From: Squalus acanthias
Lineage: Eukaryota
NCBI GenBank assembly: GCA_030390025.1
Contig: CM059431.1
Coordinates: forward strand, 112,966,001 to 113,030,000
Length of the DNA: 64,000 nt
Direction of reading: 5' to 3'
A program made the translations under genes and the position numbers. Positions 3,073-61,374 of this stretch are shown in pieces (the first letter of the stretch is position 1; each line of letters begins with the position of its first letter). The notes beneath the pieces were generated by a model. That model worked only from the letters and a program-made list of their open reading frames with translations. It was not told where the DNA came from and did no database searches.

Positions 3073-3726
3073 CGTTAAATCAGAAACAGGGTACATTTTC
3101 AGTCAATATGATATTTTGCAGTACATAATCTGAAACGGTAAGATATTTCCACTAACCTTTAACTTCTGAATATATTTCCGTCAACTAAAGCTTGGTGATG
3201 GATGCACTTTCCATGTCAAGACCTTTGTGAAGAAGCATCTCTTTTTATCAGCATTTCATTGTTCCTGGTGCTGTTGACCTTGTGCCCCAGATATCCCCTT
3301 TGGTTTTATTCCCGTTAGGCATAAACCATTATGGGAGCTCTCTTCCTTATTTAGAGAACTTATTTGACAAGGCAAGCTAGCTTGGCCATTCCAGTGATAC
3401 CTAATGTGACTCGGATTAACTACCTATGGGATACCAGCTTTCTCTGGTGACCATTAGCCACAAGATTCCATTTGGGACTGCATCTGTCATTGCATATGCA
3501 GCTGTTCTTTTGTGCTGTTGCCTTTAACTGGTTCCTAACATGGTTGTTTTTTTTATTTAGTAATTTTATATTTTATCTCCTCCATCTTTCGTGTGCCTTA
3601 TATCTTCCCTCTACCACATTATCAAAATTGCAAACGGTGGCATGACCTTTCACACCATTCCAAATTGGCTTCTCTTAAAACGCAGATTTTAACTGAGATT
3701 TTTCTTTCCACTGAACATTAAAGCAA

Positions 3727-4906: not shown

Positions 4907-5710
4907 TTACAGACTACTGTCTTTATTTAAAGATGCTTAATTCAGATTATATGATTATTCCATTTTTCTTCAGCATTTTGCTCTTCTATTTACGTTGCTT
5001 AATTCTAATTATTGGACAATTCAAATTTCCTTAGTATAAAGGTGCCCTAAATTATCAATAGACATAGGAGATGTTTTGACACGAGATTCATCCAACTGTG
5101 TGGACCTACGTGTTTTCACGCTTTGTATTATTAGTTGGGTCCACTTGTTTAAATGGTGTGGGCTACTCTCTCTTCAGCTCTACTCGAATAGATACGTTCT
5201 CATTTTCGTGGACTGTAATGAACACACGAACATTAGTTTAAATGTAAAACCTTATCAGCATTATCAAACCACCCCATAAAACCCACGTAGCATTCCAAAG
5301 TATTATCTTTAAAAAACATGAATCAGTCCAAACCACAAAATGCAGTTTTGCATTCAGCTACTCCACCCTCAAGGGCTTTGCCTCAACAACAGCAATAGTA
5401 TGTAGGTTTATTGCAGCCACGCCTAGTTACAGACCAACGTCAAGAAACCTCAACACCTTTTGCCATCCTGTGAACAATACAGTCAGTTGTGTTTCTATAG
5501 CAAAAACAGATCATGCATTCACATCGAAAAACTGGTTAAACCTGAAACATTCCACTGCCATCATAATTGCAGAGTGCTTTAAAGATTCAAACAAAACACA
5601 CCCATATCAAATTACAGACCCTTTATATATTATTTTATTTCTTAATAAAGCACAGGGGTTTCCAATTTAGAGCAATTTCTATTTAAGAATAAGTTTGATC
5701 CATGTATTAA

Positions 5711-6258
5711 TTTTTTTAATTTATTCATGGGATGTGGGTGTCACTGCCAAGGCCAGCATTTATTGCCCATCCCTGATTACCCTTGAGAAGGTGGGCCTTC
5801 TTGATCTGCTGCAGTTCGTGTGGTGTTGTTAGGTAGGGAGTTCCAGGATTTTGACCCATAAAACAATGAAGGGATGGTGATATATTTCCAAGTTAGGATG
5901 GTGTGTAACTTAGAGGGGGAACTTGGAGGTGGTTTTCCCATGCACCTGCTGCCCTTGTCCTTCTAGGTGATAGAAGTTGTGGGTTTGGGAGCTGCTGTCA
6001 AAGAAGCCTTGGCGAGTTGCTGCAGTGCATCTTGTAGATGGTGCACACTGCAGCCATGTTGCGCTGGTGGTGGAGTGAGTGAATGTTTAAGGTGGTGGAT
6101 GGGCTGCTTTGTCCTGGTTAGTGTCGAGTTTCTTGAATGTTGTTGGAGCTGCACTCATCCAGGCAAATGAAGAGTATTCCTTCACACTCCTGACTTGTGC
6201 CTTGTAGATGGTGGAAAGGCTTTGGTCGGTCAGGAGGTGAGTCACTCGCCACAGAATT
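5711..6258 (-). mobile_element. 3' fragment of LINE family B (CR1-group; tRNA-headed family)
   Basis: LSTIYKAQVRSV..YS..AWMSAAPTT peptide and a 3' UTR shared with 19852-23055. Confidence 0.8.
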
Positions 6259-7385: not shown

Positions 7386-7830
7386 TTTCAGCCTCTGAGT
7401 CAGAAGGTTGTGGGTTCAAGTCCCACTCTAGAGACTTGAGCACAAAAAGCTAGGCTGACACTCCAGTGCAGTGCTGAGGGAGTGCTGCATTGTCGGAGGT
7501 GCCGTCTTTCAGATGAGACGTTAAACCGAGGCCCCGTCTGCTCCCTCAGGTGGGCGTAAAAGATCCCATGGCACCATTTTGAAGAAGAGCAGGGGAGTTA
7601 TCCCCGGTGTCCTGGCCAATATTTATCCCTCAATCAACATAACAAAAACAGATTATCTGGTCATTATCACATTGCTGTTTGTGGGAGCTTGCTGTGTGCA
7701 AATTGGCTGCCGCGTTTCCCACATTACAACAGCGACTCCATTTCAAATAGTACTTCATTGGCTGTAAAGCGCTTTGAGACGTCCGGTGGTCGTGAAAGGC
7801 GCTATATAAATGCAAGTCTTTTTTTCTTTC
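7386..7830 (+). mobile_element. tRNA-derived Deu-domain SINE (SacSINE1-like)
   Basis: B box gggttcaagtccc; Deu-like central domain (gccgtctttcagatgagacgttaaaccgagg...aaagatcccatggcac); L2-like tail ggcgctatataaatgcaagtc. Confidence 0.85.
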
Positions 7831-9974: not shown

Positions 9975-11673
9975 CTGAGTCGCTAAAACATGGCGGAGAA
10001 GCACTATTGACGCGAATACTTGGAAGGAGGAGAGCATGCCAGGGGATCTCAGAGACGCCGTAATCGTGACCATCTTCAAGAAAGATGACAAGTCCGATTG
10101 CGATAATTACAGAGGAGTCTCCCTGCTGTCTGCCACAGGGAAAGTCATTGCAAGAATCCTCCTCAATCGCCTTCTCCCAGTGGCTGAAGAGCTCCTCCCA
10201 GAGTCGCAATGTGGATTCCACCCACTAAGGGGCACAATGGACATGATCTTCACTGCGCGTCAACTACAAGAGAAATGCAAGGAACAGCACTAACCGCTGT
10301 ACATGGCCTTCTTTGAATTCACAAAGGCCTTCGACACCGTCAAACGTGAGGGATTATGGAGTGTCCTCCTCAAATTCGGCTGCCTTCAAAAGTTTGTCAC
10401 CATCCTCCGCCTGCTTCATGACGACATACAAGCCGTGATCCTGACCAACATGATCCACCACAGACCCAATTCACGTACGGACCAGGGTCAAGCAAGGCTG
10501 TGTCATCGCACCAACGCTCTTCTCGATCTTCCTGGCTGCAATGCTCCATCTCACCCTCAGTAAGCTCCCCGCTGGAGTGGAGCTAATCTACAGAACAAAC
10601 GGGAAACTGTTCAACCTCCATCGCCTCCAGTCCAGATCCAAGGTCGTCCCATCCTCTGTCGTCGAATTACAGTATGCAGACGACGCTTGCATCTGCGCAC
10701 ACTCTGAGGTCGAACTCCAAACCATCGTCAACACCTTCACCGAAGCGTACAAGAGCATGGGCCTTACACTAAACATCCGTAAGACAAAGGTCCTCTGCCC
10801 CCGCCACACAGTACTGCTCCCCGATTATCAAAATCCACGATGAGGCCTTGGACAACGTGGACCACTTTCCATACCTCGGGAGCCTACTGTCAACAAGGGC
10901 AGACGTCGATGATGAAGTCCAACACCACCTTCAGTGTGCCAGTGCAGCCTTCGGTCACCTGAGGAAGAGAGTGTTTGAAGACCAGGATCTCAAACCCAGC
11001 ACCAAGCTCATGGTCTACAGAGCAGTAGTGATACCCGCCCTCCTGTATGCTTCAGAGACATGGACCATGTACAGCAGGCACCTCAAAGTACTGGAGAGGT
11101 ACCACCAATGCTGCCTCTGCAAGATCCTGCAAATCCATTGGCAGGATAGGCGCACCAACGTCAGTTTTCTCGCTCAGGCCAACATCCCCAGCATCGAAGC
11201 TTTGACCACGCTCGATCAGCTCCAATGGACGGGCCACATCGTCCGCATGCCTGATACGAGACTCCCAAAACAAGCGCTCTACTCGGTGCTCCGACACGGC
11301 AAGAGAGCCCCAGGTGGGCAGAGGAAACGCTTCAAGGACACCCTCAAAGCCTCCTTGAAAAAGTGCAACATCCCCACCGACACCTGGGAATCCCTGGCCC
11401 AAGACCGTACAAAGTGGAGGAGAAGCATCCGGGAAGGCGCCGAACACCTCGAGTCTCTTCGCCGGGAGCAAGCGGAAGCCAAGCGCAGGCAGCGCAAGGA
11501 TTGCACGTCAACCCAAGCACCCCACCCACCCGCCCCTTCAACCACCGTCTGCCCCACCTGTGACAGCGACTGTAGGTCCTGCATTGGACTCATCAGCCAC
11601 CTGAGAACTAATTTTTAGTGTGGAAGCAAGTCATCCTCGGTTCCGAGGGACTGCCTAAGGAGGAGAAGAAGAA
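9975..11673 (+). mobile_element. 5'-truncated RTE-clade (BovB-like) LINE with disrupted RT
   Basis: RT motifs NYRGVSLLS, LLPESQCGF, QYADD and FPYLGS; C-terminal CPTC..C..H motif; (AAG)n tail; 24-bp TSD gcatactgactaattc[g/a]tgccaag at 9951-9974 and 11674-11697; stops and frameshifts break the ORF. Confidence 0.9.
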
Positions 11674-12271
11674 GCATACTGACTAATTCATGCCAAGTCT
11701 CCTGCCATTGTCTGAAAAGAGCCTAGTGAGTGGTAGTTCTGCCCTACCCACCTCCAGTGGTGAAATCCCCCTGAGGGAAATCCAACCCATTACCTCCTCT
11801 CATATTGCACCTTGGTGAAGTTGCAGAGCTCAGCTGATTTTGGCAATGGCCTTGTGTTCCTTCTACTATGGCCTGAAACCTCCTTAGTTATCTTTTGCGG
11901 CTGCTCTTGCTTCTCTCATCCAATATGTCCAGCTTGTGTGACTTGTTGTTGCAGTCATGTTGGCATTATTTTTCAGATTGTTTCTGCCGTGCTTTGAACT
12001 GGATCTCTGCCAACTCTCTCCATTATCTTAGCACTATCTTTATAGTGGGCATCGTCAATACAATGTGGGCTGGAAGACAAGCATGAACAAATTTGCCTTT
12101 AATTGGCACTTAACAAGTCCTAACAAGCCAATAGACACAGTCATATGTTAACTTTAACACAGAACTTGGTACCCCTTTGTACAGCTAAAGCGATGTTTAC
12201 CTTGGCCTGTTGTTGTGCGCCTCTTAGATCCTGATCTTGGAGAAACACTGGAGGAGACCTGGGAATAAGTA

Positions 12272-12478
12272 TGATGTGGAGATGCCGGTGTTGGACTGGG
12301 GTGGACAAATGTGAGAAGTCGCACAACACCAGGTTATAGTCCAACAGCTTTATTTGAAATCACAAGCTTTCGGAGCGCTGCTCCTTCGTCACCTGACGAA
12401 GGAGCAGCGCTCCGAAAGCTTGTGATTTCAAATAAAGCTGTTGGACTATAACCTGGTGTTGTGCGACTTCTCACATTT
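12272..12478 (-). mobile_element. Palindromic Penelope pLTR mini-insert (hammerhead family 1)
   Basis: 86-nt perfect inverted arms 12306-12391 / 12394-12479; sequence matches the 3' end of the Penelope element (30717-30843); GGGAATAAGTA TSD at 12261-12271 and 12479-12489. Confidence 0.85.
12389..12425 (+). ncRNA. Minimal type I hammerhead ribozyme motif
   Basis: tcac-CTGACGA-a-ggagc/agc/gctcc-GAAA-gctt-gtga. Confidence 0.8.
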
Positions 12479-12558
12479 GGGAATAAGTAACCTACCTGCC
12501 CTTTCAGCAAGGCGAAGTAGAACTAAGAATGGGTAGGGCACAACATAAGTTTATCTTT

Positions 12559-12661: not shown

Positions 12662-12840
12662 GTTTATCTTTTCCCTGTTTTTTCCCCTCTGGTTTCCTTT
12701 CCTATCACTCATTCAGGGATATGGTTCAGTTGGAGCAGCAGCCTTTTTGTTTCTTACTAGGCGACACGTCTTAATGCATAGTGTGGACGATGAAGGCCTC
12801 ACTAGGCACCCACATATCTGCACTGTCAGCAGGAGTTATT

Positions 12841-14539
12841 TTTTTTTATTCGTTCCTGGGATGTGGGTGTCGCTGGCAAGACCAGCATTTATTGCCCATC
12901 CCTAATTGCTCTTGAGAAGGTGATGGTGAGCTGCCTTCTTAAACCGCTGCAATCCATGTGGTGAAAGTACTCCCACAGTGCTGTTAGGGAGGGAGTTCCA
13001 GGATATTGACCCAGCGACGATGAATATATTTCCAAGTCAGGATGGTGTGTAACTTGGAGGGGAACTTGCAGGTGATGGTGTTCCCATGCACCTGCTGCCC
13101 TTGTCCTTCTAGGTGATAGAGGTCATGGGTTTGGGAGGTGCTGCCGAAGAAGCCTTGGCGAGTTGCTGCAGTGCATCTTGTAGATGGTACACACTGCAGC
13201 CATGGAATACCGGTGGTGGAGAAAGTGAATGTTTAAGGTGGTGGATGGGGTGCCAATCAAGCGGGCTGCTTTGTCCTGCATGGTGTCGAGCTTCTTGAGT
13301 GTTGGAGCTGCACTCATCCAGGCAAGTGGAGAGTATTCCATCACACTCCTGACTTGTGCCTTGTAGATGGTGGAAAGGCTTTGTGGAGTCAGGAGGTGAG
13401 ACACTCGCCGCAGAATACCTAGCCTCTGACCTGCTCTTGTTGCCACAGTATTTATGTGGCTGCTCCAGTTAAGTTTCTGGTCAATGGTGACCCCCAGAAT
13501 GTTGATGGTGGGTAATTCGGCGATGGTAATGCTGTTGAATGTCAAGGGGTGTGGTTAGACTCTCACTTGTTGGAGATAGTCATTGCTTGGCACTTTTGTG
13601 GCGCGAATGTTACTTGCCACTTATCAGCCCAATCCAGGTTTTGCTGCATGCAGGCATGGACTGCTTCATTATCTGAGGAGTTGCGAATGGAACTGAACAC
13701 CGTGCAGTCATCAGCGAACATCCCCACTTCTGACCTTATGATGGAGGGAAGGTCATTGATGAAGCAGCTGAAGATGGGTGGGCCTAAGACACTGCCCTGA
13801 GGAACTCCTGCAGCGATGGCCTGGGGCTGAGATGATTGACCTCCAACAACCATCTTCCTTTGTGCTAGGAATGATTCCAGCCAGTGGAGAGTTTCCCCCC
13901 CGATTCCCATTGACGTCCATTTTACTAGGGCTCCTTCAAGCCACACTCGGTCAAATGCTGCCTTGATGTCAAGGGCAGTCACTCTCACCTCACCTCTGGA
14001 ATTCAGCTCCATTGTCCATGTTTGGACCAAGGCTGTAATGAGGTCTGGAGCTGAGTGCTCCTGGCGGAACCCAAACTAGGCATCAGTGAGCAGGTTATTG
14101 GTGAGTAAATGCTGCTTGATAGCACTGTCGACAACACCTTCCATCACTTTGCTGATGATTGAGAGTAGACTGATGGGGCGGTAATTGGCCGGATCGGATT
14201 TGTCCTGCTTTTTGTGGACAGGACATACCTGGGCAGTTTTCCACATTGTCGGATAGATGCCAGTGTTGTAGCTGTACTGGAATAGCTTGGCTAGAGGCGT
14301 GGCTCGTTCTGGAGCACAAGTCTTCAGCACGACAGCCGGGATGTTGTCGGGGCCCATAGCCTTTTCTGTATCCAGTGCGCTCAGCTATTTCTTGATATCA
14401 CATGGAGTGAGTCGAATTGGCTGAAGACTGGCTTCTGTGATGTTGGGGACCTCAGGAGGAGGCCGATATGGATCATCCACTCGGCAGTTCTGGCTGAAGA
14501 TGGTTGCAAACGCTTCAGCCTTGTCTTTTGCGCTTGCGT
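12841..14539 (-). mobile_element. 5'-truncated LINE family B copy (RT region)
   Basis: NYRPISLLS, LDIKAAFDRVW, GVPQGSVLGP and FADD motifs; GCAGGAGTTATT TSD at 12829-12840 and 14540-14551. Confidence 0.88.
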
Positions 14540-14725
14540 GCAGGAGTTATTATATGGCGATCAAGAGCGTGACGACTGGCTGATTATTTGCCTGCCTCGC
14601 TCTGGCTACTGAGGTCAACTGCAGTGACCTCGTGAACTAGATGAAATCAACTTATTCAGCACAGGCAATGGTTGAAATCCGACTCACTCCTGGTCTCTAT
14701 GCTTCAGTATCACACCATGCGTCCA
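14540..14725 (-). mobile_element. Old tRNA-type SINE remnant (host of the LINE at 12841-14539); related copy at about 47510-47720 (+)
   Basis: Loose similarity between the two loci, seen by eye only. Confidence 0.35.
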
Positions 14726-19850: not shown

Positions 19851-19851
19851 C

Positions 19852-22800
19852 TTTTTTAAAATTTGTTTATGGGATTTGGGCATCGCTGGCAATGCCAGCA
19901 TTTATTGCCCATCCCTAATTGCCTTTGAGAAGGTGGTGGTGAGCCGCCTTCTTGAACCGCTGCAATCCATGTGGTGAAGGTACTCCCACAGTTCTGTTAG
20001 GAATGGAGTTCCAGGATTTTGACCCAGCGACGATGAAGGATTGGCGATATACTTCTAAGTCAGGATGGTGTGTGACTTGGAGGGGAACTTGGAGGTGGTG
20101 GTGTTCCCATGTGCCTGCTGCCCTTGTCCTCCTAGGTGGAAGAGGCCGCGGGTTTGGGAGGTGCTGCCAAAGAAGCCTTGGCGAGTTGCTGCAGTGCATC
20201 TTGTAGATGGTACACACTGCAGCCATGGTGTGCCGGTGGTGGAGGGAGTGAATGTTTAAGGTGGTGGATGGGGTGCCAATCAAGTGGGCTGCTTTGTACT
20301 GGATGGTGTCGAGCTTCTTGAGTGTTGTTGGAGCTGCACTCATCCAGGCAAGTGGAGAGTATTCCATCACACTCCTTACTTGTGCCTTGTAGATGGTGGA
20401 AAGGCTTTGGGGAGTCAGGAGGTGAGATACTCATCGCAGAATACCTAGCCTCTGACCTGCTCTTGTTGCCACAGTATTTACGTGGCTGGTCCAGTTAAGT
20501 TTCTGGTCAATGGTAACGCCCAGGATGTTGATGGTGGGGGATTTGGCAATGGTAATGCCGTTGAATGTCAAGGGGAGGTGGTTAGACTCTCGCTTGTTGG
20601 AGATAGTCATTGCCTGGCACTTCTGTGGTGCGAATGTTACTTGCTACTTATCAGCCCGAGCCTAAATGCTATCCAGGTCTTGTTGCATGCGGGCATGGAC
20701 TGCTTCATTATCTGAGGAGTTGTGAATGGCGCTGAACACTGTGCAGTCATCAGCGAACATCCCCATTTCTGACCTTATGTTGGAGGGAAGGTCATTGATG
20801 AAACAGCTGAAGATGGTTGAGCCTAGGACACTGCTCTGAGGAACTCCTGCAGCAATGTCCTGGGGCTGTGATGAATGACTTTCAACAACCACAACAATCT
20901 TCCTTTGTGCTAGGTATGACTCCAGCCAGTGGAACGTTTTCCCCCTGATTCCCATTGGCTTCAGTTCTCCTCGGGTTCCTTGATGCCACACTCGGTCAAA
21001 TACTGCCTTGATGTCAAGGGCAGTCACTCTCACCTCACCTCTGGAATTCAGTTACATATTTCATGTTTGTACCAAGGCTGTAATGAGGTCGGGAGCTGAG
21101 TGGCCTTGGCAGAACCCAAACTGGGCATCAGTGAACAGGTTTTTGCTGAGTAAGTGCCACTTGACAGCACTGTTGATGACACCTTCCATCACTTTGCTGA
21201 TGATTGAGAGCAGACTGATGGGGCGGTAATTGACCGGGTTGGATTTGTCCTGCTATTTGTGGACAGGACATACCTGGGCAGTTTTTCACATTGTCGGGTA
21301 GATGCCAGTGTTGTAGCTGTTCTGGAACAGCTTGGCTAGAGGCGCTCTAGTTCTGGAGCACAAGTCTTCAGCACGACAGCCAGGATGTTATCGGGGCCCA
21401 TAGCCTTTGCTGTATCCAGTGCACTCAGCCGTTTCTTGATATCACGTGGAGTGAATCGAATTGGCTGAAGACTGGCTTCTGTGATGGTGGGGACCTCGGG
21501 AGTAGGCCGATATGGATCATCCACTCGGCACTTCTGGCAAACGCTTCAGCCTTGTCTTTTGCACTCACGTGCTGGGCTCCACCATCATTGAGGATGGGGA
21601 TGTTCATGGAGCCTCCCCCTCCCGTTAGTTGTTTAATGGTCCACCACCATTCACGACTGGATGTGTCAGGACTGCAGAGCTTTGATCTGATCCGTGGATT
21701 GTGGGATCGCTTAGCGCTGCTTCCGCTTTTTAGCATGCATGTAATCCTGTGTTGCAGCTTCCCCCCTCATTTTTAGGTATGCCTGGTGCTGCTCCTGGCA
21801 TGCTCTTCTACACTCCTTATTGAACCAGGGTTGGTCCCCTGGCTTGATGGTAATGGTAGAGTGAGGGGTATGCCAGGCCATGAGGTTACAGATTGTGGTG
21901 GAATACAATTCTGCTGCTGCTGATGGTCCACAGCCTCATGGATGCCCAGTTTTGAGCTGCTAGATCTGTTCTGAATCTATCCCATTTAGTATGGTGGTAG
22001 TGCCACACAACACAATGGAGGGTGTCCTCAGAGTGAAGGCGGGACTTCGTCTCCGCAATGACTGTGCGGTGGTCACTGCTACCAATACTGTCATGGACAG
22101 ATACATCTGCGACAGGTAGATTGGTGAGGACGAGGTCAAGTAGGTTTTTCCCTCGTATTGGTTCTCTCACCACCTGTCACAGGCCCAGACTGGCAGTTAT
22201 GTCCTTCAGGACTCGGCCAGCTTGGTGCTACCGAGCCACTCTTGGTGATGGACATTGAAGTCCCCCACCCAGAGTACATTCTGTGCCCTTGCTACTCTCA
22301 GTGCTTCTTCCAAGAGGTGTTAAACATGGAGGGGAGTACTAATTCATTGGCTGAGGGAGGGCAGTAGGTGGTAATCAGCAGGACGTTTCCTTGCCCATGC
22401 TTGACCTGAAGCCATGAGACTTCATAGGGTCCAGAGTCAATGTTGAGGACTCCCAGGGCTACTCCTTCCCGACTGTATACCACTGCTGACCAAGTCCTGG
22501 ACATACCCAGGGATGGTGATGGAAGAGTTTGGGACATTGGCTGAAAGGTATAATTCTGTGAGTATGACTATGTCAGGCTGTTGCTTGTCTAGTGTCTGTG
22601 GGACAGCTCTCCCAATTTTGGCACAAGCCCCCAGATGTTGGTGAGGACTTTGCAGGGTTGACTGTGCTGGTTGTGCCGTTGCCGTGTCCGTAGCCAGTGC
22701 CGAGGTGTCCGTCCGGTTTCATTTTTATTATTATTTTGTTTCGTAGCGGTTTGTTACAATTGAGTGGCTTGCTAGGCCATTTCAGAGGGCAGTTAAGAGT

Positions 22801-23055
22801 CAACCACATTGCTGTGGGTCTGGAGTCACATATAGGCCAGACGATTTGCTTCCTTAATAGGACATTAGTGAACCAGATGGGTTTTTACCACAATCCGATA
22901 GTTTCATGGTCAGCATTACTGATAATAGCTTATTTATTTAACTGAATTTTAATTCCCCAGCTGCCGTGGCAGGATTTGAACTCACGTCTCTGGATCATTA
23001 GTCCAGGCCTGCTGGATTACTAGCCCAGTGACATAACCACTACACTGCCGTTCCC
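19852..23055 (-). mobile_element. Near full-length, decayed LINE family B: tRNA-like head + single EN-RT ORF + 3' UTR
   Basis: Pol III A/B-box-like head at about 22960-23055; APE remnants (LLITTY.PPS, LDLVLTN, SSDH); RT motifs (LDIKAVFDRVW, FADD); A-rich 3' end at about 19852; many indels. Confidence 0.85.
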
Positions 23056-24470: not shown

Positions 24471-27400
24471 TATAGAAAATAGGTACAGGAGTAGACCATT
24501 CGGTCCTTCGAGCCTGCACCGCCATTCAATGCGTTCATGGCTGAACATGCTACCTCAGTACCCCATTCCTGCTTTCTCGCCATACCCCTTGATCCCCTTA
24601 GTTGTGAGTGTTATATCTAACTCCCTTTTGAATATATTTAGCGAACTGGCCTCAACAACCTTCTGTGGAAGAGAATTCCATAGATTCACCACTCTCTGGG
24701 TGAAGAAGTTCCTCCTCAGCTCAGTCCTAAATGGCTTCCCCTTAATCCTTAGACTGTGACCCCTGGTTCTAGTTTTCCCTACCATTGGGAACATTCTGCC
24801 CGCATCTAATTTGTCTAAACCAGTCAGGATTTTAAATGTCTCTATAAGATCCCCCCTCATTCTTCTGAACTCCAGAGGATACAAGTTCAGTTGACCCAAT
24901 CTTTCTTGATATGTCAGTCCGGCCATCCCAGGAATCAATCTAGTGAACCTTCGCTGCACTCCCTCAATAGCAAGAATGTCCTTCCTTAAGTTAGGAGACC
25001 AAAACTGCGCACAATACTCCAGGTGTGGCCTCACCAAGGCCCTGTACAACTGTAGCATCACCTCCCTACTCCTGTACTCAAATCCCCTTGCTATGAAGGC
25101 CATCATTCCGTTTGCTTTCTTGACTGCCTGCTGCACTTGCATTCCCACCTTCAGTGACTGATGTACCATGACGCCCAGGTCTCGTTGCACGTCCCCTTTC
25201 CCTAATCTGCCACCATTCAGGTAATAGTCCGCCTCTCTATTTTTACCACCAAAGTGGATAACCTCACATTTATCCACATTGTACTTCATCTGCCATACAT
25301 TTGCCCATTCACCCAACCTGTCCAAGTCACTCTGTAGCCTCCTAGCATCCTCCTCATTGTTCACACTGCCTCCCAATTTAGTGTCATCCGCAAATTTGGA
25401 GATATTACATTTAATCCCTTCGTCCAAATCATTAATATATAATGTAAACAGCTGGGGTCCTAGCACCGAACCCTGCGGTACCCCGCTGGTCACTGCCTGC
25501 CATTCTGAAAAGTACCCATTTACTCCTACTCTTTGTTTCCTGTGTGCCAACCAGTTCTCAATCCACGTCAACACATTACCCCCAATCCCATGTGCTTTAA
25601 CTTTGCTCACCAATCTCTTGTGTGGGACCTTGTCGAAGGCCTTCTGAAAGTCCAAATACACCACATCTACTGGTTCCCCCCTGTCCACCCTATTGGAAAC
25701 ATCCTCAAAAAATTCCAGAAGATTTGTCAAGCATGATTTCCCTTTCACAAATCCATGCTGACTTGGACCTATCATGTCGCCACTTTCCAAATGGTCTGTT
25801 ATGACATCTTTAATAATTGCTTCCATCATTTTACCCACGACCGATGTCAGGCTGACCGGTCTATAATTCCCTGCTTTCTCCCTCCCTCCTTTTTTAAAAA
25901 GAGGGGTTACATTGGCCACCCTCCACTCCATCGGAACTGATCCAGAGTCTAAGGAATGTTGGAAAATGATCGTCAATGCATCCACTATTTCCAAGGCCAC
26001 CTCCTTAAGTACTCTGGGATGCAGACCATCAGGCCCCGGGGATTTTTCAGCCTTCAGTCCCATCAATTTCCCCAATACCTTTTCCCGACTAATAAGGATT
26101 TCCCTCAGCTCCTCCCTCTTACCAGATCCTCTGACCCCTTTTATTTCCGGCAGGTTGTGTGTGTCCTCCACAGTAAACACCGAACCAAAGTACTTGTTCA
26201 ATTGATCTGCCATTTCCTTGTTCCCCATTACGACTTCCCCTGTTTCCGACTGCAGGGGACCTACGTTTGTTTTTACTAACCTCTTTCTTTTTACATATTT
26301 ATAGAAGCTTTTGCAGTCCATTTTAATGTTCTCTGCAAGCTTCCTTTCATATTTTATTTTCCCTGCCCTAATCAAACCCTTCGTCCTCCTCTGCTGAGTT
26401 TTGAAGTTCTCCCAGTCCCCGGGTTTGCTGCTACTTCTGGCCAATTTGTATGCAACTTCCTTGGTTTTAATACTATCCCTGATTTCCCTTGTTAGCCATG
26501 GTTGAGCCACCTTCCCTTTTTTATTTTTATGCCAGACCGGGATGTACAATTGTTGTAGTTCATCCATGCGATCTCTAAATGTCTGCCATTGCCCTTCCAC
26601 TGATAGCCCCTTAAATATCGCTTGCCAATTTAACCTCGCCAATTCACGCCTCATACCCTCAAAGTTGCCCTTATTTAAGTTCTGGACCATGGTCTCTGAC
26701 TTAACTGTTTCCTTCTCCATCCTAATGTAGAACTCCACCATACTATGGTCACTCTTCCCCAGGGGGCCTCGTACCACAAGATTGCTGATTAGTCCCTCCT
26801 CATTACACAACACCCAGTCCAGGATGGCCTCCCCTCGAGTTGGTTCCTCAACATATTGGTTTAGGAAACCATCCCTTAAACACTCCAGGAAATCCTCCTC
26901 CACCGTATTGCTTCCAGTTTGAGTAGCCCAATCTATATGCATATTAAAGTCACCCATGATAACTGCCGTGCCTTTTTTGCACGCACCTCTGATTTCCTGT
27001 TTCATACCCTCCCCCACCTCACTACTGCTGTTTGGAGGTCTGTACACAACTCCCACTAACGTTTTCTGCCCTTTGGTGTTCTGCAGCTCAACCCATATTG
27101 ATTCCACATCCTCCAAGCTGATGTCCTTCCTAGCTATTGCATTAATCTCCTCTTTAACCAGCAATGCTACCCCACCCCCTTTTCCTTTTATTCTATCCTT
27201 TCTGAATGTTGAATACCCCTGGATGTTCAGTACCCAGCCTTGATTGTTCTGGAGCCACGTCTCTGTAATCCCAATCACATCGTATCCGTTAACATCTATT
27301 TGCACAGTCAATTCATCCACCTTATTACGGATACTCCTTGCATTAAGACACAGAGCCTTTAGGCTTGTTTTATTAACATCCTTTGTCCTTTTAGACTTAT

Positions 27401-27504
27401 GATTTAGTATTGCCCTTTGTGTTTCTTGCCTTTGTTTACTCGGCCTTCCCCTATTGTTTCTCACCCTTCTAACATTTGTTTCTGACTGCATATTACTTCC
27501 CACT
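24471..27504 (-). mobile_element. Young CR1 LINE, truncated just 5' of ORF2
   Basis: Uninterrupted ORF2 plus 3' UTR; GTTTAA TSD at 24465-24470 and 27505-27510. Confidence 0.92.
24555..27503 (-). CDS. CR1 ORF2: APE endonuclease + reverse transcriptase (982 aa, intact frame)
   Basis: NARSIRNK, GITETW, GDFN and SDH (endonuclease); YLDFQKAFDKVPH, GVPQGSVLGP and FADD (RT). The track starts at a GTG; the first ATG is four codons later. Confidence 0.93.
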   Translation of the reverse strand: MGSNMQSETNVRRVRNNRGRPSKQRQETQRAILNHKSKRTKDVNKTSLKALCLNARSIRNKVDELTVQIDVNGYDVIGITETWLQNNQGWVLNIQGYSTFRKDRIKGKGGGVALLVKEEINAIARKDISLEDVESIWVELQNTKGQKTLVGVVYRPPNSSSEVGEGMKQEIRGACKKGTAVIMGDFNMHIDWATQTGSNTVEEDFLECLRDGFLNQYVEEPTRGEAILDWVLCNEEGLISNLVVRGPLGKSDHSMVEFYIRMEKETVKSETMVQNLNKGNFEGMRRELARLNWQAIFKGLSVEGQWQTFRDRMDELQQLYIPVWHKNKKGKVAQPWLTREIRDSIKTKEVAYKLARSSSKPGDWENFKTQQRRTKGLIRAGKIKYERKLAENIKMDCKSFYKYVKRKRLVKTNVGPLQSETGEVVMGNKEMADQLNKYFGSVFTVEDTHNLPEIKGVRGSGKREELREILISREKVLGKLMGLKAEKSPGPDGLHPRVLKEVALEIVDALTIIFQHSLDSGSVPMEWRVANVTPLFKKGGREKAGNYRPVSLTSVVGKMMEAIIKDVITDHLESGDMIGPSQHGFVKGKSCLTNLLEFFEDVSNRVDRGEPVDVVYLDFQKAFDKVPHKRLVSKVKAHGIGGNVLTWIENWLAHRKQRVGVNGYFSEWQAVTSGVPQGSVLGPQLFTLYINDLDEGIKCNISKFADDTKLGGSVNNEEDARRLQSDLDRLGEWANVWQMKYNVDKCEVIHFGGKNREADYYLNGGRLGKGDVQRDLGVMVHQSLKVGMQVQQAVKKANGMMAFIARGFEYRSREVMLQLYRALVRPHLEYCAQFWSPNLRKDILAIEGVQRRFTRLIPGMAGLTYQERLGQLNLYPLEFRRMRGDLIETFKILTGLDKLDAGRMFPMVGKTRTRGHSLRIKGKPFRTELRRNFFTQRVVNLWNSLPQKVVEASSLNIFKRELDITLTTKGIKGYGEKAGMGY

Positions 27505-28246
27505 GTTTAAGCTAATTAAGGAGAGCTAACACAGATTTGTAAAAGGCAGGTTGTGTTTAACTAATCTAATTGAATTTTTTGATGAAGTAACAGAGAGGAT
27601 TGATGAAGGGAATGCAATGGATGTTGTCTACATGGATTTTTGGAAGGCATTTGACAAAGTATCACATAGAAGGCTGGTTAACAAAATTGAGGCTCATGGA
27701 ATAAGTGGGTCAGTGGCAGCTTGGATAAGGAATTGGCTTAAGGACAGAAAACAGCAAGTTGTGGTAAATAGCTGTTTTTCAGACTGGAGGATGGTAGACA
27801 GTGGTGTTCCCCAAGGGTCAGTGCTGGGGCCACTGCTTTTTTTGATATATATAAATGACCTGAATATTGGAATACAAAGTAGAATTTCTAAATTTGCCGA
27901 TAACACCAAATTTGGGTGTGTGGCAAACAGTGAGGATGATACCAATCGACTGCAACAGGACATAGAAAGGCTAGTAGAATGGGCAGACAAGTGGCAGATG
28001 GAATTTAATACAGAGAAGTGTGAGGTGATGCATTTTGGCAGAAGGAACAGGGAGAGGCAATATACACTTAATGGCACAGTTTTAAAGAGTGTGCAGGGAC
28101 AGAGGGACCTGGGAGTTAATGTGCATAGATCCCTGAAGGTGGCGGGACATATTGAGAGAGTGGTTAACAAAGCATATGGGATCTTGGGCTTCATAAATAG
28201 AGAAGTCGCACAACACCAGGTTATAGTCCAACAGTTTTATTTGAAA

Positions 28247-28284: not shown

Positions 28285-28718
28285 AGTAAAGGAATACAAA
28301 ATCGACAAAGCATATATAGACAGAGAACAATGCATGTGTAACTTACAATGGCAGACGACTACATTTAATCCTCCTGACTGCCTTTTGTCACACCTCGGCA
28401 GATAAACAATCAGGTCAGCCAGGAAGGCACCACATCAAAGACATAGCAAGATACAACTGAGACAATGAGGTGGGGTTACAGGGGGTCTAATGTGTCAAAA
28501 GCTGCAGTCGGTATGGAAAACGATAAACTTTAAAATTTTTACTTTTTTACTGGGAATCACATCTGTGAACAAGCCAACGACGACTCGAGTCTGGATGACT
28601 CTACGTCATGTATCGTGACATAAACCCAAGATCCCGGTTGAGGCCGTCCTCATGAGTGCGGAACTTGGCTATCAGTTTCTGCTCGATGATTTTGCGTTGT
28701 CGTGTGTCTCTAAGGCCG

Positions 28719-30410
28719 CCGACCAAAGAACATACCCGCCAACTCAATAGACTGATCAAGACCTTCGATCCAGACCTTCAAAGCATCCTACGCGCTCTCA
28801 TCCCACGTACTCCCCGCGTGGGAGACTTCTACTGCCTCCCAAAGATACACAAAGCCAACACACCCGGACGTCCTATCGTATCAGGCAACGGAACCCTGTG
28901 TGAGAACCTCTCTGGATACGTTGAGGGCATCCTGAAACCTATCGTACAGGGAACCCCTAGCTTCTGCCGCGACACCACAGACTTCCTACAGAAACTCAGC
29001 ACCCACGGACCAGTTGAACCAGGAACACTCCTCGCCACGATGGACGTATCGGCACTCTACACCAGTATCCCCCACGATGACGGCATCGCTGCGACAGCCT
29101 CAGTACTCAACACCAACAACAGCCAATCTCCAGACGCCATCCTACAACTCATCCGCTTCATCCTTGACCACAATGTCTTCACCTTCGACAACCATTTTTT
29201 TACCCAAACACACGGAACAGCCATGGGGACCAAATTCGCACCCCAATAAGCCAACATCTTCATGCACAAGTTCGAGCAAGACTTCTTCGCTGCACAGGAC
29301 CTCCAGCCAACGCTGTACACCAGATACATCGACGACATTTTCTTCCTTTGGACCCATGGCGAAGGATCACTGAAAAGACTACACGATAACATCAACAAGT
29401 TCCATCCCACCATCAAACTCACCATGGACTACTCCTCAGAATCGGTTTCATTCCTGGACACACGAATCTCCATCAAAGACGGATACCTCAGCACTTCACT
29501 CTACCGCAAGCCCACGGACAACCTCACGATGCTCCACTTCTCCAGCTTCCACCCTAACCACGTTAAAGAAGCCATCCCCTATGGACAAGCCCTGCGAATA
29601 CACAGGTTCTGCTCAGACGAGGAGGAACGCGATGGACACCTACGGACACTGAAAAACGCCCTCGTAAGAACGGGATATGACGCTCGACTCATCGATCGAC
29701 AGTTCCGACGGGCCACAGCGAAAAATCGTATAGACCTCCTCAGAAAGCAAACACGGGACACAACCAACAGGGTACCCTACGTCGTCCAGTACTTCCCCGG
29801 AGCGGAGAAACTACGCCATGTTCTTCGTAGCCTTCAACATGTCATCGATGACGACGAACACCTCGCTAAGGCCATCCCCACGCCTCCACTACTTGCCTTC
29901 AAACAGTCGCCTAACCTCAGAAGTACCATCGTTCGCAGCAAATTACCCAGCTTTCAGGATAACAGCGACCACGACACCACACAACCCTGCCATGGCAACC
30001 TCTGCAAGACATGCCAGATCATCAACACAGATACCATCATCACACGTGAGGACACTACCCACCAGGTACATGGTACATACTCATGTGACTCGGCCAACGT
30101 TGTCTACCTCATACGTTGCAGGAAAGAATGCACCGTGGCATGGTACATCGGCGAGACCATGCAGACACTGAGACAACGTATGAATGGACACCGCGCAACA
30201 ATCGCCAGGCAGGATTGTTACCTCCCAGTCGGGGAACACTTCAGCAGTCAAGGACATTCAGCCTCGGATCTGCGGGTAAGCGTTCTCCAAGGCGGCCTTA
30301 GAGACACACGACAACGCAAAATCATCGAGCAGAAACTGATAGCCAAGTTCCGCACTCATGAGGACGGCCTCAACCGGGATCTTGGGTTTATGTCACGATA
30401 CATGACGTAG
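28719..30410 (+). pseudogene. Penelope-like RT / GIY-YIG endonuclease ORF, N-terminally truncated, with one in-frame stop
   Basis: FYCLPKIHK, GRPIVS, MDVSALYTSIP, GTAMG, RYIDDIF, FLD, LYRKPT; Cys-rich linker PCHGNLCKTC; VVYLIRC...WYIGET...LRQRMNGH; TAA at 29247-29249 (PQ*ANIFM). Confidence 0.9.
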
Positions 30411-31438: not shown

Positions 31439-34400
31439 GGGCTGGATTTTGCCAGTGTGGGCGGGCTGGGGCGTGTCAGGTGGCAAATGTTTCAGGACCC
31501 CGACTCTGAAGTGAAGTGGGGAAAAAGAGCTATTTTCCCCTAATTGGGCAATTGATTTCCTGCGTGTGGGAACCCCTGGCCCAATGAGTCTTTTCATACA
31601 GAAAGTCGCCTCCAATGACATCATCAGTACTGCTGGATTTAAGGCCTGCAAGCAGCCTTGCTTCTTCTGGAGACTGCAAACTTTATGGTGATTGCAGTAA
31701 GGACTTAATTGATCGACTATGTCCACCAGCAGGCAAAAGTGTGCTCCACGCTTCGATGAGCCCTCCCTCCAAGCTCTGGTGGAGGGAGTAAGATCGAATA
31801 AGGAGGTGCTCTTCCCTTCCTCAGGGAGAAAAAAGCCACCCCAGCAGACTAAAGCTGTGTGGCTGCAAGTGGCCCAGAAGGTCAACTCCATATAGATGAA
31901 CTGCAGAACCTGGCTGCAATGCAGAAAGAGGTTTCATGACCTTCTCCGCACAGGAAAAGTGAGTATGACTTTCCCATCACTCTCAATCTGATCCCCATCC
32001 CCTCTCCTCACCAGCACTCTGCTTTGCTAACCTCTTCCTCCACATCCCACTTGACACTGACATCCCTGCACCCTTACCCATTGCCTCTCTCTCTGTGGTC
32101 ACATTCACTTAACTATTCGACCATGTAGCCCTCACACTCCCTATCACTGTGATGCAACAACAACAACAACTTACAACATACAGGGAGGGCCCTTTGTCTC
32201 CTTCTAAGCATCTATGCTATGCATTCTCTACACTCACTCCTTCATTCTCACTCAAACTCCACTTGTGTCCCTCATTGCAGGAAAAGAGAGCCCACAATAA
32301 GAGGGAAAGAGCCATGACAGGAGGAGGGCCACCCTCAGTAGCCCAGCTCACCGCCTGGGAGGAGGCGGCCCTGGAAATCGCTGGGATCGAGGAGGATTCC
32401 CAAGTGGGGGACGGACAGACGGGCGCATCACAGCAAGCTGGTGACAGAATAGTTTGGCATCTCTCTCATTGACATTGCATGAGTCACTGATAATGATTCT
32501 GATGCTCTAACAGATTGACTTATGATCATCTGCACTGTTCAATGTGCATGTAACCTTGACCTCACATCTGCAACTCTTTCCTTTACTCCCTCACAGGACC
32601 ATCGAAAGCCCCCGTCCCCACTGTCCAGGAGGAAGTGCCTGAGCTTCCATACTCCTCAGAGGAAGCTGCAACCTCTGAGGGTGCAGCGTCAGCAGAATTC
32701 AGCGCACCCAGCACCAGCGCAGACACTCACACCTCAGTGGGACCTTCGCGAGATAGAGTAGTGTTGGCACCTGGTGTATCACAGCTCACAAGTGAGCATC
32801 AGCAGATGGTGGAGACAGGGACAGCAGTGGAGAGTCCTCGTCAGAGAGCGCAGGACTCTGCCAGCTCGGCTCAGCTGCATGTTGACCCTGTGCCTCCGGG
32901 TCCATCCAGAAGCAGAGCGGTGCTGGAACTCCAGGAACAGGTGCAGGAGTCTCTGGCAGGTTTTGTCTCCAGGGTCGCTGCGAGTGTGGAGCGAATGGAG
33001 GAGTCCATCGCGAACATGAGCAGAGCCTTTGTGGAGGCATTGGCGCATGAACGCATCACCGCGGACAGGATGGCAACCTCCGTGGAAAGGATAGCTAACT
33101 CCGTGATAAGGATGGCTACCGTAGAGGAGAGGATGGCTATGGTAGAGGAGAGGATGGCTCCGGCCATGGAGGAGCTTAGTTGCCAGGGTCTTGAAAACAT
33201 GGTCATTGTTCAGAATAAAATAACATCTCTTGAGGAGCGATGGTCAGCTATTGAGCAGAGAAACCAGACCTTCATGGAAGTCCTCTGGAGTAGGACTTCC
33301 AGTGCAGAAACGGGTCCTCATGGCCCCCCTGAAGTGCAGCAAGGTGCTGTCAAGCCACTTGCTAGCTCTGAAGTGGGGCTGACCCATGAGAGGGATGTTG
33401 GTGGCAGACAACCAGGAAGTGTGGGCTCCTCTCCAAGCGCTCACACTACCATGCCACTGCGGAGCCCTCGGTCAGAGCCCCACCAGAGTCCCCACCCAAC
33501 TGAGATGGGCGTCTCAGCCCCTGCACAGCCACAGGAGCAGCAGACTGTTGCCGAGCCCTCACAGGCTCGCAACCCCAGAGGACGGCCGCCAAAGGTGTCG
33601 AGGCAGGAGCAGCAAGAAATTGAGCAAGGGGCCTCCACATCTGCTGAAGCCACAGGGGAAGCACCACGTAGGAGCACGTGTAAGAGGAAGATAAAGCACA
33701 AGTAGTCACAAGGGTAGTCACTTGGGTGCTGTGATGTATTGTATTTGGACCAGCCATCCTTGTCATGGTATCACAAACAGATTTGATGGCAAACTGTTGA
33801 AGTTGTGGCCTGTGTCATCTCACAAATGGGACTTCCACATTGAGAGCTTAGGGCGACTTGCAATTGTCAGTATGGTGGTCAGAGTGATAGGAATCCGCAG
33901 GTTCTTGTCCATTGTCGATGCTCTGGTTATTCTGGCCTGTGCAGTTTCAGGTGGGTGAGCAGCAGCTTGGCGCTCCTGTTGTTCATGGTTCTGCTGCTGC
34001 CGTGGCTGGTCTTCGTCCGAATCTGATGTCCAGGAGGAAAGGAAATAAATGGTTCCCATGCATCTGCTATATACCTCAGTTGAGGAAACGCTCAGTCAAG
34101 GTGGGGAGAGGGGTTTCCCAGGAGGTCACACTGGAAATGGATGTCAGGCTCCAAACTTCCACAACAATGAGTAGGCCTGCTAAAAGTTCCCCCAGACCTG
34201 AGACAACAAAGTTCTGCCACCTGCAAATGATGATTGGTGAAAACTCCTTTGTAATGGTGGAGCTGCAGCTGTTACTAAGCAATCCACTTGTGTGGCTGCC
34301 AGCATTACCTGGCATGTTCCAGAGGAGGCGTGTAGGATGGGGGAAATGTCTAAAAATAAGAAAGGCCTCTCAAAATTGGATTATAGAGGCAATTAAGTGG

Positions 34401-35186: not shown

Positions 35187-35520
35187 AAAAATAAATTCTC
35201 AGAATGTGGGCTTTGTTGGCAAGGCCGGCATTTATTGCCCATCCCTGGCTTCTCTGTACAAACTTGTTTGGCCACTTCAGAGTCAACCACGTCGATGTAG
35301 GCCAGATGGGGTAAGGACAGCAGGTTTCCTTTCCTAAAGCACATTAGTGGGTTTTTTACGACAATCTGATAACTTCATAGTCACTTTTACTGAGACCAGC
35401 TTTTTAATTTCCAGATTTAACTGCATTGAAACTGCCATGGTGAGATTTGAAATCACATTCTCTAGATTATTAGTTCAGGCCTCTGGATTACTAGTCCAGT
35501 AATATAATGCTACCGTACTC
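35187..35520 (-). mobile_element. SINE-like derivative of LINE family B (tRNA-like head joined to the 3' tail)
   Basis: 35275-35520 matches the family B 5' region; 35187-35250 matches its 3' UTR; no ORF between them. Confidence 0.75.
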
Positions 35521-35996: not shown

Positions 35997-36283
35997 GGGC
36001 AACACGGTGGCATAGTGGTTAGCACTGTTGCCTCACAGCGCCAGGGACCCGGGTTCGAATCCGGCCTCGGGTGACTGTCTGTGTGGAGTTTTGCACATTC
36101 TCCCCGTGTCTGCGTGGGTTTCCTCCGGGTGATCCGGTTTCCTCCCACAGTCCAAAGATGTGCGGGTTGACCCTTAGTGCTGGGGGGATTAAATACGTGG
36201 GGTTACGGGGATAGGGTGGGATATGTGTCGGTGCAGGCTCGATGGGCCGAAATGGCCTCTATCTGCACTGTGGGGATTGTGTG
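35997..36283 (+). mobile_element. tRNA-derived V-SINE (HE1-like)
   Basis: A box tggcatagtgg; B box gggttcgaatcc; V domain (ctgtgtggagttttgcacattctccccgtgtctgcgtgggtttcctccggg); CR1-like tail. Confidence 0.88.
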
Positions 36284-36877
36284 TGAAAAACTAGAACACC
36301 AGATTGGATTAGAGGAGATTTTAGAAAGTTGAGCCAGCCTGCTGAGATGAGGTGAAAGGAGAAATTGACACACAGGGACTGTAGAGCAACAGTGGGATGT
36401 TTTTAAAAAGAAATTGCAAAAGGTACAGAATCAGTACATTGCATTACAAAATTAGAAAACATACCAACGGATGCCACGGACAAATAAAGAGGTTAAGAGC
36501 AGGATAAGGAAACCTAAGAGGGAGCGTGAGGAAAAAGTATGAACCCACCACAAAAAAAAAGCAGTAAAGTATTTCACAAGTATATCAGTAAAAACAGAAT
36601 TGTTAAATGTGACATGGGACCCCGAGAAGAGAGCACTGTCAAGTTGTAAATGATGATCGAAAATGACGGAAGTATTTATTAAGTACTTTGCATTGGCCTT
36701 TTCAAAAAGGAGATCAGAGAGGAGGCGAGTCCTGAAGTGGTTGAGAACGAGATGAATGATATTATGATGGGCAAGAGGAACATTTCAGATAAGTTAGTTA
36801 GTCTAAAGGAAGACGAAGGGCCAGGCATGCCGCCGATAATCCCGAGGAAGGAAATTGCTGAGGCTTTAGAAATGAGA

Positions 36878-38771: not shown

Positions 38772-41003
38772 AATGTTGAATGTTGAATGTCAAGGGGAGG
38801 TGGTTAGACTCCTGCTTGTTGGAGATAGTCATTGCCTGGCACTTCTGTGGCGCAAATGTTACCTGCCACTTACCAGCCCAAGCCTGAACATCGCCCAGGT
38901 CTTGTTGCATGCGGGCTTGGACTGTTTCATTATCTGAGGAGTTGTGAATGGCGCTGAACACTGTGCAGTCATCAGCGAACATCCCCATTTCTGACCTTAT
39001 GTTGGAGGGAAGGTCATTGATGAAGCAGCTGAAGATGGTTGGGCCGAGGACACTGCCCTGAGGAACCCCTGCAGCGATGTCCTGGGACTGTGATGATTGA
39101 CCTTCAACCACCACAACCATCTTCCTTTGTGCTAGGTATGACTCCAGCCAGTGGAGCATTTTCCCTCTGATTCCCATTGACTTCAGGGCAGTTTTCCACA
39201 TTGTCGGATAGATGCCAGTGTTGTAGCTGTTCTGGAACAGCTTGTTCTGGAGCACAAGTCTTCAGCACGATAGCCGGGATGTTGTCGGGGCCCATAGCCT
39301 TTGCTGTATCCAGTGTGCTCAGCCGTTTCTTGATATCACGTGGAGTGAATCGAATTGGCTGAAGACTGGCTTCTGTGATGGTGGGGACCTCAGGAGGAGT
39401 GGATCATCCACTCGGCACTTCTGGCTGAAGATGGTTGCAAACACTTCAGCCTTGTCTTTTGCACTCACGTACTGGGCTCCACCATCATTGAAGATGGGGA
39501 TATTCATGGCGCCTCCTCCTCCCATTAGTTGTTTAATGGTCCACCACCATTCATGACTGGATGTGGCAGGACTGCAGAGCTTTGATCTGATCTGTTGATT
39601 GTGGGATCGCTTAGCCCTGTCTATAGAATGCTGCTTCCGCTTTTTAGCATGCATGTAGTCCTGTGTTGCAGCTTCCCCAGGTTGGCCCCTCATTTTTAGG
39701 TACGCCTGGTGCTGCTCCCGGCATGCTCTTCTACACTCCTTATTGAACCAGGATTGGTCCCCTGGCTTGATGGTAATGGTAGAGTGAGGAATATGCCAGG
39801 CCATGAGGTTACAGATTGTGGTGGGATATAATTCTGCTGCTGCTGATGGCCCACAGCGCCTCTTGGATGCCCAGTTTTGAGCTGCTAGATCTGTTCTGAA
39901 TCTATCCCATTTAGCACGGTGGTAGTGCCACACAACACGATGGAGGGTGTCCTCAGTGTGAAGACGGGACTTCGTCTCCACAATGACTGTGCGGTGGTCA
40001 CTGCTACCAATGCTGTCATGGACAGATGCATCTGCGACAAGTAGATTGGTGAGGATGAGGTCAAGTAGGTTTTTCCCTCGTGTTTGTTCTCTTACCACCT
40101 GTCACAGGCCCAGACTGGCAGCTATGTCCTTCAGGACTTGGCCAGCTCGGTCAGTAGTGGTGCTACCGAGCTGCGCTTGGTGATGGACATTGAAGTTCCC
40201 CACCCAGAGTACATTCTGTGCCCTTGCTACTCTCAGTGCATCTTCCAAGTGGTGTTCAACATGGAGGTGTACTGATTCATCAGCTGAGGGAGGGCGGTAG
40301 GTGGTAATCAGCAGGAGGTTTCCTTGCCCATGCTTGACCTGAAGCCATGAGACTTCATGGGGTCCGGAGTCAATGTTGAGGACTCCCAGGGCCACTCCTT
40401 CCCATCCGTGTACCACTGTGCTGCCACCCCTGGTGGGTCTGTCCTGCCGGTGGGACAGGACCTACCCAGGGATGGTGATGGAGGAGTCTGGGACATTGGC
40501 TGAAAGGTATGATTCTGTGAGTATGACTATGTCAGGCTGTGGGACAGCTCTCCCAATTTTGGCACAAGTCCCCAGATATTGGTGAGGAGGACTTTGCAGG
40601 GTCGACTGGGCTGGGCGTGCCATTGCCGTGTCCGTAGCCAGTGCCAAGTTCGATGCCGGTTGGTCCGTCTGGTTTCATTTTATTATTGTGTTTCGTAGCG
40701 GTTTGTTACAACTGAGTGACTTGCTGGGCCATTTCAAAAGGAAGTTAAGAGTCAACCACATTGCTGTGGGTCTGGAGTCACATATAGCCCAGACTAGGAA
40801 AGGACGACAGATTTCCTTCCCTAAGGAACATTAGTGAACCAGATGGGTTCATGGTTACCATGGTTACCATTACTGACACTAGCTTGTTATTCCTGATTTA
40901 TTTAATTAACTGAATTTTAAATTCCCCAGCTGCCATGGTGGGATCATTAGTCCAGGCCTCTGGATTACTAGCCCAGTGACATTACCACTACGCTACCGTT
41001 CCC
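38772..41003 (-). mobile_element. LINE family B copy with intact 5' terminus, internal deletion and missing 3' end
   Basis: Starts at the same 5' base as 23055 (gggaacgg(t/c)ag(c/t)gtagtggt); endonuclease motifs LLITTYRPPS, VGNFNVH and SSDH; RT motifs GVPQGSVLGP and FADD; deletion junction near 39186. Confidence 0.87.
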
Positions 41004-45321: not shown

Positions 45322-45770
45322 AAGAACTTGCAATTATATAGCATCTTTCACATCTGTCTCAAAGCGCTTCAAAGCCAATGAATTACTTGTTTGAAGTGCA
45401 GCCAATGTTTTGTAGGCAAACATGACAATGCGTACACACCAAGGTTGCACAAACAGCAATTGAGGTGAATGACCAGTTAATCTGTTGTGGTAGTGTTGGT
45501 TGAAGGATGATGTTTGCCAGGATACCAGGATAACTCACTGTTTTTCCTTGAAAACATGCCAATGGGATCATTTACATCCACCAGAACAGGCAGGCAGGGC
45601 TTCAGTTTCAACGTCTCATTCAAAAGACAGCACTTCCAACGATGCAGCACTCCTTCAGTACTGCACTGAGGTCTCAGCCTCGATTATCTGTTCAAGTCTT
45701 GGAGTGGGGTTTGAAGCCACAACTTTCCAATTGAGCACCAAGACTGTTATCACCGAGACAAGCTGACACT
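45322..45770 (-). mobile_element. Deu-domain SINE (older copy)
   Basis: Reverse-complement homology to 7386-7830. Confidence 0.75.
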
Positions 45771-61265: not shown

Positions 61266-61374
61266 GGGAGGTGTAATTGGATACCAGTCACCCAACATTC
61301 TACCTGCAATGTGTAATTTGATACACAGAGATAGTTGCCAACATATAGTTGCACTATAGGCAAGGCACAGGTAA

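Follow-up and report, generated by a model that had tools for sequence, protein, structure and literature searches.

The window, a 64,000-nt stretch of Squalus acanthias DNA (contig CM059431.1), contains minus-strand copies of one LINE family together with SINE-length relatives (Table 1). Copies A and B extend to the element's 5′ end, and C and D are truncated there. Read in the sense direction, copy A consists of a tRNA-like head, a body, a short linker, a single ORF encoding an APE endonuclease and a reverse transcriptase (RT), and a 3′ tail.

Table 1. Coordinates of the LINE copies, their parts and the SINE-length relatives within the window
Feature	Position	Strand	Description and basis
Copy A	19851-23055	minus	head, body, linker, single ORF, 3′ tail
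tRNA-like head of A	22960-23055	minus	sequence, box scan, weak Rfam tRNA match
A box of A	23047-23037	minus	two mismatches; begins at +9
Two tandem anticodon-like arms of A	23028-23012, 23006-22990	minus	by eye
B box of A, GTTCAAATC	22981-22973	minus	box scan
Body / 5′ UTR of A	22745-22959	minus	~215 nt; common to the short SINE copies
Linker of A	22655-22744	minus	~90 nt; ORF2 frame open, Arg-rich, no AUG
Single ORF of A (APE endonuclease and RT)	19915-22654	minus	broken by stops and frameshifts
ORF stop codon of A	19917-19915	minus	translation
3′ UTR stem-loop and A-rich tail of A	19851-19914	minus	fold; common to C, D and both SINE copies
Copy B	38772-41003	minus	start base as in A; B box and an internal segment deleted; 3′ end absent
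A box of B	40995-40985	minus	perfect
Copy C	12836-14544	minus	5′-truncated; 8.5% substitutions versus A
Copy D	5707-6257	minus	5′-truncated; 11.6% substitutions versus A
SINE-length copy	35190-35520	minus	head, body, LINE 3′ tail
SINE-length copy, head missing	46489-46760	plus	body, LINE 3′ tail

Structure and independence of the head-bearing copies

Copies A and B begin at the identical first base (23055 and 41003, minus strand), upstream of which their alignment stops. The original prediction had placed their common start there and had described an A-box-like 5′ end, with a B box retained in the 23-kb copy and deleted in the 41-kb copy; all of this holds, the loss in B being a 20-nt deletion. 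Box scan and consensus rows alike place the A and B boxes at tRNA-like distances from the 5′ end, and the loop of the first anticodon-like arm presents AGT at the anticodon position (by eye). The Rfam tRNA match at 22961-23049 is weak (18.6 bits, E 0.42, gathering score 29), ARAGORN found no tRNA in the head, and no Rfam family reached its gathering score anywhere in the window. Folding of the 5′ 406 nt is not above that of shuffled sequences (z 0.38), and the same applies to the head.

Head and body together measure ~310 nt and extend to ~22745. The body does not, as had been claimed, run straight into the endonuclease region; the ~90-nt linker intervenes. The endonuclease motif begins at 22654, and its distance of ~400 nt from +1 in both A and B leaves no room for an ORF1, in agreement with the prediction. 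Pfam searches identified Exo_endo_phos_2 (PF14529) on copy B and RVT_1 (PF00078) on copy C, and tblastn with P0001 agrees. No in-frame AUG for ORF2 was found in the translations of A or B. The sole linker AUG lies out of frame, at 22722 in A and 40678 in B, 68 and 74 nt before the endonuclease motif, and no canonical slippery heptamer was seen by eye in the AUG/ORF2 overlap. A linker AUG was also seen by eye in six of seven published elasmobranch consensus sequences (see below); that of the stingray is likewise out of the endonuclease frame, and the arrangement is therefore not damage to the window copies. At the 3′ end, the stem-loop region (19851-19935) folds with z -3.74, and A-rich ends are present in copies A, C, and D.

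An initial reading of the body as a Deu domain and of the head as that of SacSINE1 was rejected. Two Deu motifs drawn from the alignment in PMC7245038 match nowhere in head or body, with 8 and 7 matches across the window. Nor does the body resemble the alignments of Deu, Meta, and UCON3 that this paper gives in its supplement, Meta and UCON3 being compared by eye. The body matches none of the SINE domains that were compared, which takes away one reason to think of capture from one of the known SINE superfamilies.

The 1-kb 5′ flanks of A and B share no local match longer than 11 bp, so the two copies are not products of a single segmental duplication. Their identity is 84% across 1,900 columns, gaps counted. 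Substitutions are spread evenly over the element (head and core 6.9%, linker 8.2%, endonuclease side 5.6%, RT 6.2%); the 96-nt tRNA-like part by itself, next to the deletion in B, diverges more (11 of 76 aligned sites). No target-site duplication of at least 4 nt was found around copy A, and copy B has no 3′ end; duplications enclosing head and ORF had been proposed as a check. The common start, the unrelated flanks and the even divergence fit two independent insertions of one transcript, and neither a duplication nor later SINE insertions. The argument that the shared junction speaks against chance SINE insertion is strengthened by these results and by the same junction in five species. Copy B has an internal deletion of ~310 nt and has lost ~700 nt at the 3′ end, tail included. 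In this region (38772-39186), such a combination is unusual for a fresh insertion, and the losses are probably later damage.

The A versus C comparison yielded a pN/pS of 0.44 with a codon-position bias (P 0.003), and A versus B yielded 0.93, which we read as neutral decay from one master. Three more comparisons gave 0.43-0.61 without significant codon-position bias. These substitution patterns suggest that purifying selection acted on the ORF between one master and another and that the lineage kept a working ORF. Because C and D are 5′-truncated, this signal is not tied to a head-bearing master.

Membership in the elasmobranch Zenon family

From its first base onwards, and throughout head, body, and linker, the 5′ end of the window copies matches SquAca_Zenon-1, a 3,314-nt consensus deposited in the supplement of PMC13343379 (Genome Biol Evol 2026). 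The match was established by motif search and by eye over the first 400 nt of each consensus, within which no sequence difference between SquAca_Zenon-1 and the window copies was found. On the basis of this match, the window copies are the known elasmobranch Zenon family. According to that paper, Zenon occurs in five elasmobranchs with consensus sequences more than 84% alike; the elements have a single APE-RT ORF and an A-rich tail, and Zenon universally lacks ORF1 and carries a poly-A tail. The lack of ORF1 is therefore a published trait and not new, and the premise that CR1-group LINEs normally possess an ORF1 is not applicable here. Intact ORFs among long copies number 3/612, 1/1419, 1/294, 0/2313, 0/59, and 0/396 in the six readable entries of the same supplement.

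By eye, all seven elasmobranch Zenon consensus sequences start with the head (SquAca_Zenon-1/2/3, CarCar, RhiTyp, ScyCan, and HypSab_Zenon-1; three from dogfish and one each from white shark, whale shark, catshark, and stingray), compared with none of the three from hagfish and coelacanth. The five -1 rows are 3,244-3,314 nt long and the remaining two 2,886 and 3,096 nt. A motif from the body core was retrieved from six of the seven by search, and the seventh carries a variant recognized by eye. Six B-box variants, searched in the first 400 letters of each cell of the 1,004-row CR1-group consensus sheet, gave six matches, each of them within a Zenon row from a shark, and the B box of the stingray row takes a variant form. 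The A and B boxes are kept among species although the intervening sequence differs (by eye), and the 10 Zenon rows of the sheet include no head-less elasmobranch Zenon. The claim of one family with its head fused to a single ORF is thus borne out by the two window copies and by the published consensus sequences of five sharks and rays. As far as these sequences tell, the head belongs to a single unit with body, ORF, and tail, in the window and in the consensus sequences of the five species, and its presence in both sharks and a ray would imply an old fusion or later horizontal spread.

Protein searches returned fragments in shark gene models, pointing to Heterodontus francisci and to gene models of Rhincodon typus, along with distant ORFs and no full-length shark ORF. 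One whale shark gene model (P0015) joins the translated core to the endonuclease start. In a 13-row RT tree with an open backbone and no named Zenon included, the RT stands apart from the CR1 copies of the window (37% identity), its nearest proteins being 44-47% identical.

Half or more of the words of the element are shared by 14 of 24 listed sequencing runs; the word shares are 0.06-0.08 in three metatranscriptome runs, and run X24 yielded no reads matching the element. Contigs of runs X1 and X15 span all 30 bins, their depth, which is not copy number, rising towards the 3′ end. A linker variant at 22725 occurs in 40 contigs of X1 and 6 of X15, and the linker is therefore multi-copy. Depth in the bin of the head-body/ORF junction is 0.41 M versus 0.97 M in the next bin, a dip probably due to private indels of copy A and possibly instead to head-less copies; no loose contig ends were found at the endonuclease start among the 16 listed of ~6,088. 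The single 20-mer match in metagenome contigs (L001) is a chance one inside a bacterial gene, presumably of a chemotaxis-kinase-like type, which is otherwise unlike the window.

In the main text of PMC13343379, the words "tRNA" and "promoter" do not occur and "SINE" appears in a reference only, so that the head is deposited in the consensus sequences of that study but not described there. In the literature searched, neither a Zenon nor a CR1 LINE was found to be described as tRNA-headed or Pol III-driven, and Repbase, Dfam, subscription papers or other supplements may hold such a description. The 5′ architecture thus appears to be unremarked in the literature.

Transcription of the element and competing readings

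A depletion of sense-strand T4 runs had been proposed as a check on the head-bearing LINE. The counts are indeed low, with no such run in A (3,186 nt before the tail) or C and one each in B and D (533 nt in the latter), but the deficit is weak against controls. For A, the absence of T4 runs contrasts with 4.6 expected from base shuffles (P 0.012), whereas dinucleotide shuffles give P values of 0.087 for A, 0.68 for B, and 0.11 for C, the copies not being independent. Across 912 pooled codons, none was observed versus 2.97 expected under synonymous shuffling (P 0.034) and 2.88 under third-base redrawing (P 0.04). Observed/expected ratios for TT are 0.70-0.89 in A-C versus 1.13-1.26 in CR1 fragments, and T4 runs number 0-0.45 per kb of sense strand in A-C versus 1.2-9.0 in other retroelements of the window. 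The intact CR1 control likewise falls short of its null expectation (5 versus 9.7, P 0.03), and a bias for the Phe codon TTC was dropped as specific evidence because the Penelope-like control behaves alike (3/23 versus 3/17). The control labels CR1, RTE, and Penelope are presumed from motif recognition, and for CR1 also from tblastn. Collectively, the sequence is consistent with Pol III read-through, with modest statistical support.

We lean towards reading the head as an internal promoter from which Pol III would transcribe an autonomous LINE, translation having a non-canonical start. In such a cycle, TFIIIC would bind the A and B boxes of the head, and Pol III would start at +1 and read the TTTT-free 3.2 kb as far as the tail. 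Translation of this uncapped RNA would have to manage with no in-frame AUG, through a cap-independent start, through reinitiation or through a -1 shift that sets out from the conserved AUG. Binding of ORF2p to the 3′ stem-loop would follow, with insertion of the RNA through target-primed reverse transcription, and the SINEs would be head-plus-tail relatives mobilized by the same ORF2p. Each full-length copy would keep its promoter, as the promoter would be internal. A more demanding version, in which an autonomous coding element is transcribed end to end over 3.3 kb by Pol III, translated cap-less and AUG-less, kept across sharks and rays and the source of its own SINE by ORF deletion, is plausible, and here we would lean slightly the other way. 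Against the Pol III reading weigh the weakness of the T-run deficit, the lack of an in-frame AUG, a 5′ fold on a par with shuffled sequence, the depth dip at the junction and the length limit proposed by Kojima (2024), according to whom such elements are confined to ~1.3 kb or less by the weak processivity of Pol III (PMC10886601).

The head could instead be an integral 5′ end of an element for which Pol II makes the full-length coding RNA. Head or body would then act as an internal Pol II promoter, and TFIIIC binding, exchange with the abundant SINE or some other cause would account for the persistence of the boxes. We regard this as unlikely and still as the most serious competitor. LINEs are generally regarded as Pol II-transcribed (PMC10886601, PMC5786205), translation is simpler to explain if the RNA is capped, and the T-run signal is weak. 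Against it speak the first base of the element, which is where a tRNA-type promoter would begin it, with the A box at +9, the boxes kept in five species and the low T4 density of A-C relative to other retroelements of the window. A split cycle appears rather improbable: here, as in a giant SINE, Pol III would make the 3.3-kb template, and ORF2p would act in trans, supplied by Pol II read-through of copies within host transcription units or by a head-less sister master. Pol III RNA is uncapped, and this, the lack of an in-frame AUG for ORF2 and the rarity of intact ORFs among long copies would all suit such an arrangement. Few intact copies are, however, normal for an old LINE family; the full-length ORF is kept in five species with the high consensus similarity cited above (PMC13343379), and a head-less elasmobranch Zenon is absent from the 10 Zenon rows.

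It is very improbable that the whole structure is an artefact, whether of chance SINE insertions beside truncated LINEs, of segmental duplication or of a SINE glued on during consensus building. The head-bearing genomic copies examined directly number two, no target-site duplication was found and the SINE is abundant, all of which would leave room for an artefact. Yet two copies whose flanks are unrelated and whose divergence is even have an identical junction, the junction recurs in the consensus sequences of five species, the 22725 linker variant is found in contigs of both X1 and X15, and the whale shark model P0015 joins core and endonuclease start; the artefact reading is thereby largely refuted already.

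SINE forms, related systems, and other repeats

Head and body of the 35-kb SINE copy are 22% diverged from A, and both SINE copies have in common some letters unlike the LINE, which places them on an older branch or on a separate one. In contigs of X1 and X15, the end of the body (22748-22787) is joined to the tail (19917-19964), and these are SINE forms. The LINE may have captured a SINE head, or the SINE may derive from the LINE. In run X23, from another organism, 156 reads were found, 92% of which continue into unlike sequence; three reads join the body end directly to the LINE tail (19977), again a SINE form, and the Zenon family seems rare in the genome behind this run.

Several known elements resemble parts of this arrangement. 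Bov-tA, WALLSI, and SINE2_Gav are short elements with 5′ and 3′ parts of a partner LINE, as are the SINEs here, and Persaeus is such a short derivative of a lepidopteran Zenon, without a Pol III promoter (PMC6740152). In these bipartite derivatives a tRNA head is found on the non-coding element only, whereas here the coding element bears it. RTE-1_DAn and elements related to it in Repbase are LINEs said to hold tRNA-like sequence matching many SINE2 heads (Kojima 2018, PMC5786205); they belong to the RTE clade, and the available account states neither the position within the element nor promoter use. The shark SINEs SacSINE1 and LmeSINE1 (PMC5499810) resemble the SINE forms here in being tRNA-headed. 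Both have a Deu domain and an L2-2_CM tail (the reported donor being L2, not Zenon), while the Zenon head and body lack Deu motifs; the SINE with the Zenon head therefore differs from SacSINE1. If Zenon RNA is uncapped, it would parallel R2, which is released from an rRNA co-transcript, and L1Tc, the RNA of which has been proposed to be uncapped with an IRES (PMC3383444), though both differ in having HDV-like ribozymes and no internal Pol III promoter. The TRIMp3 elements Cassandra, Helenus, and Ajax are non-SINE retroelements with small-RNA-derived Pol III promoters, but they are non-autonomous LTR elements of 311-1,263 bp with no ORF (PMC10886601).

The working rule holds that LINEs use Pol II and SINEs Pol III, the processivity of Pol III keeping SINEs short (PMC10886601). 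That rule would be broken by a coding element of 3.3 kb under a tRNA-type promoter, with long copies numbering in the hundreds to thousands in the genomes of five elasmobranchs. Such an element would offer tests of Pol III driving a transposon mRNA, of the translation of an uncapped, AUG-less RNA and of the origin of a SINE from a LINE by deletion alone. Annotation is affected because LINE 5′ ends and true SINEs get masked as each other. Should the RNA be made by Pol II, the head would be a curiosity of Zenon 5′ UTR evolution.

Other repeats of the window were noted in passing. At 24558-27506 (minus strand) lies a stop-free CR1-type ORF2 of 983 codons with endonuclease and RT, a candidate young copy that served as a T4 control and is cut off upstream by an opposite-orientation CR1 fragment (27510-28202). 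Most Deu-motif matches in the window fall within a separate repeat family of six copies (2792-3073, 7391-7829, 45316-45727, 48906-49356, 53679-54141, and 57152-57497), which is probably SacSINE1-like. A SINE at ~36000-36285 (plus strand), in which both the A box and the B box are clear and the tail is of CR1 type, resembles, we assume, V-SINE HE1. The segment 28200-30801 contains RT frames (28656-30407), which we take to be Penelope-like and which lie between the arms of an inverted repeat (521 bp, 97.7% identity), and related palindromic pieces occur at 12267-12479 and 59191-59371. Two presumably RTE-like LINE copies, at 10000-11671 (plus strand) and 60554-61287 (minus strand), are 94.7% identical over 714 bp, and a stop-free stretch of 381 codons lies at 32560-33702 (plus strand).
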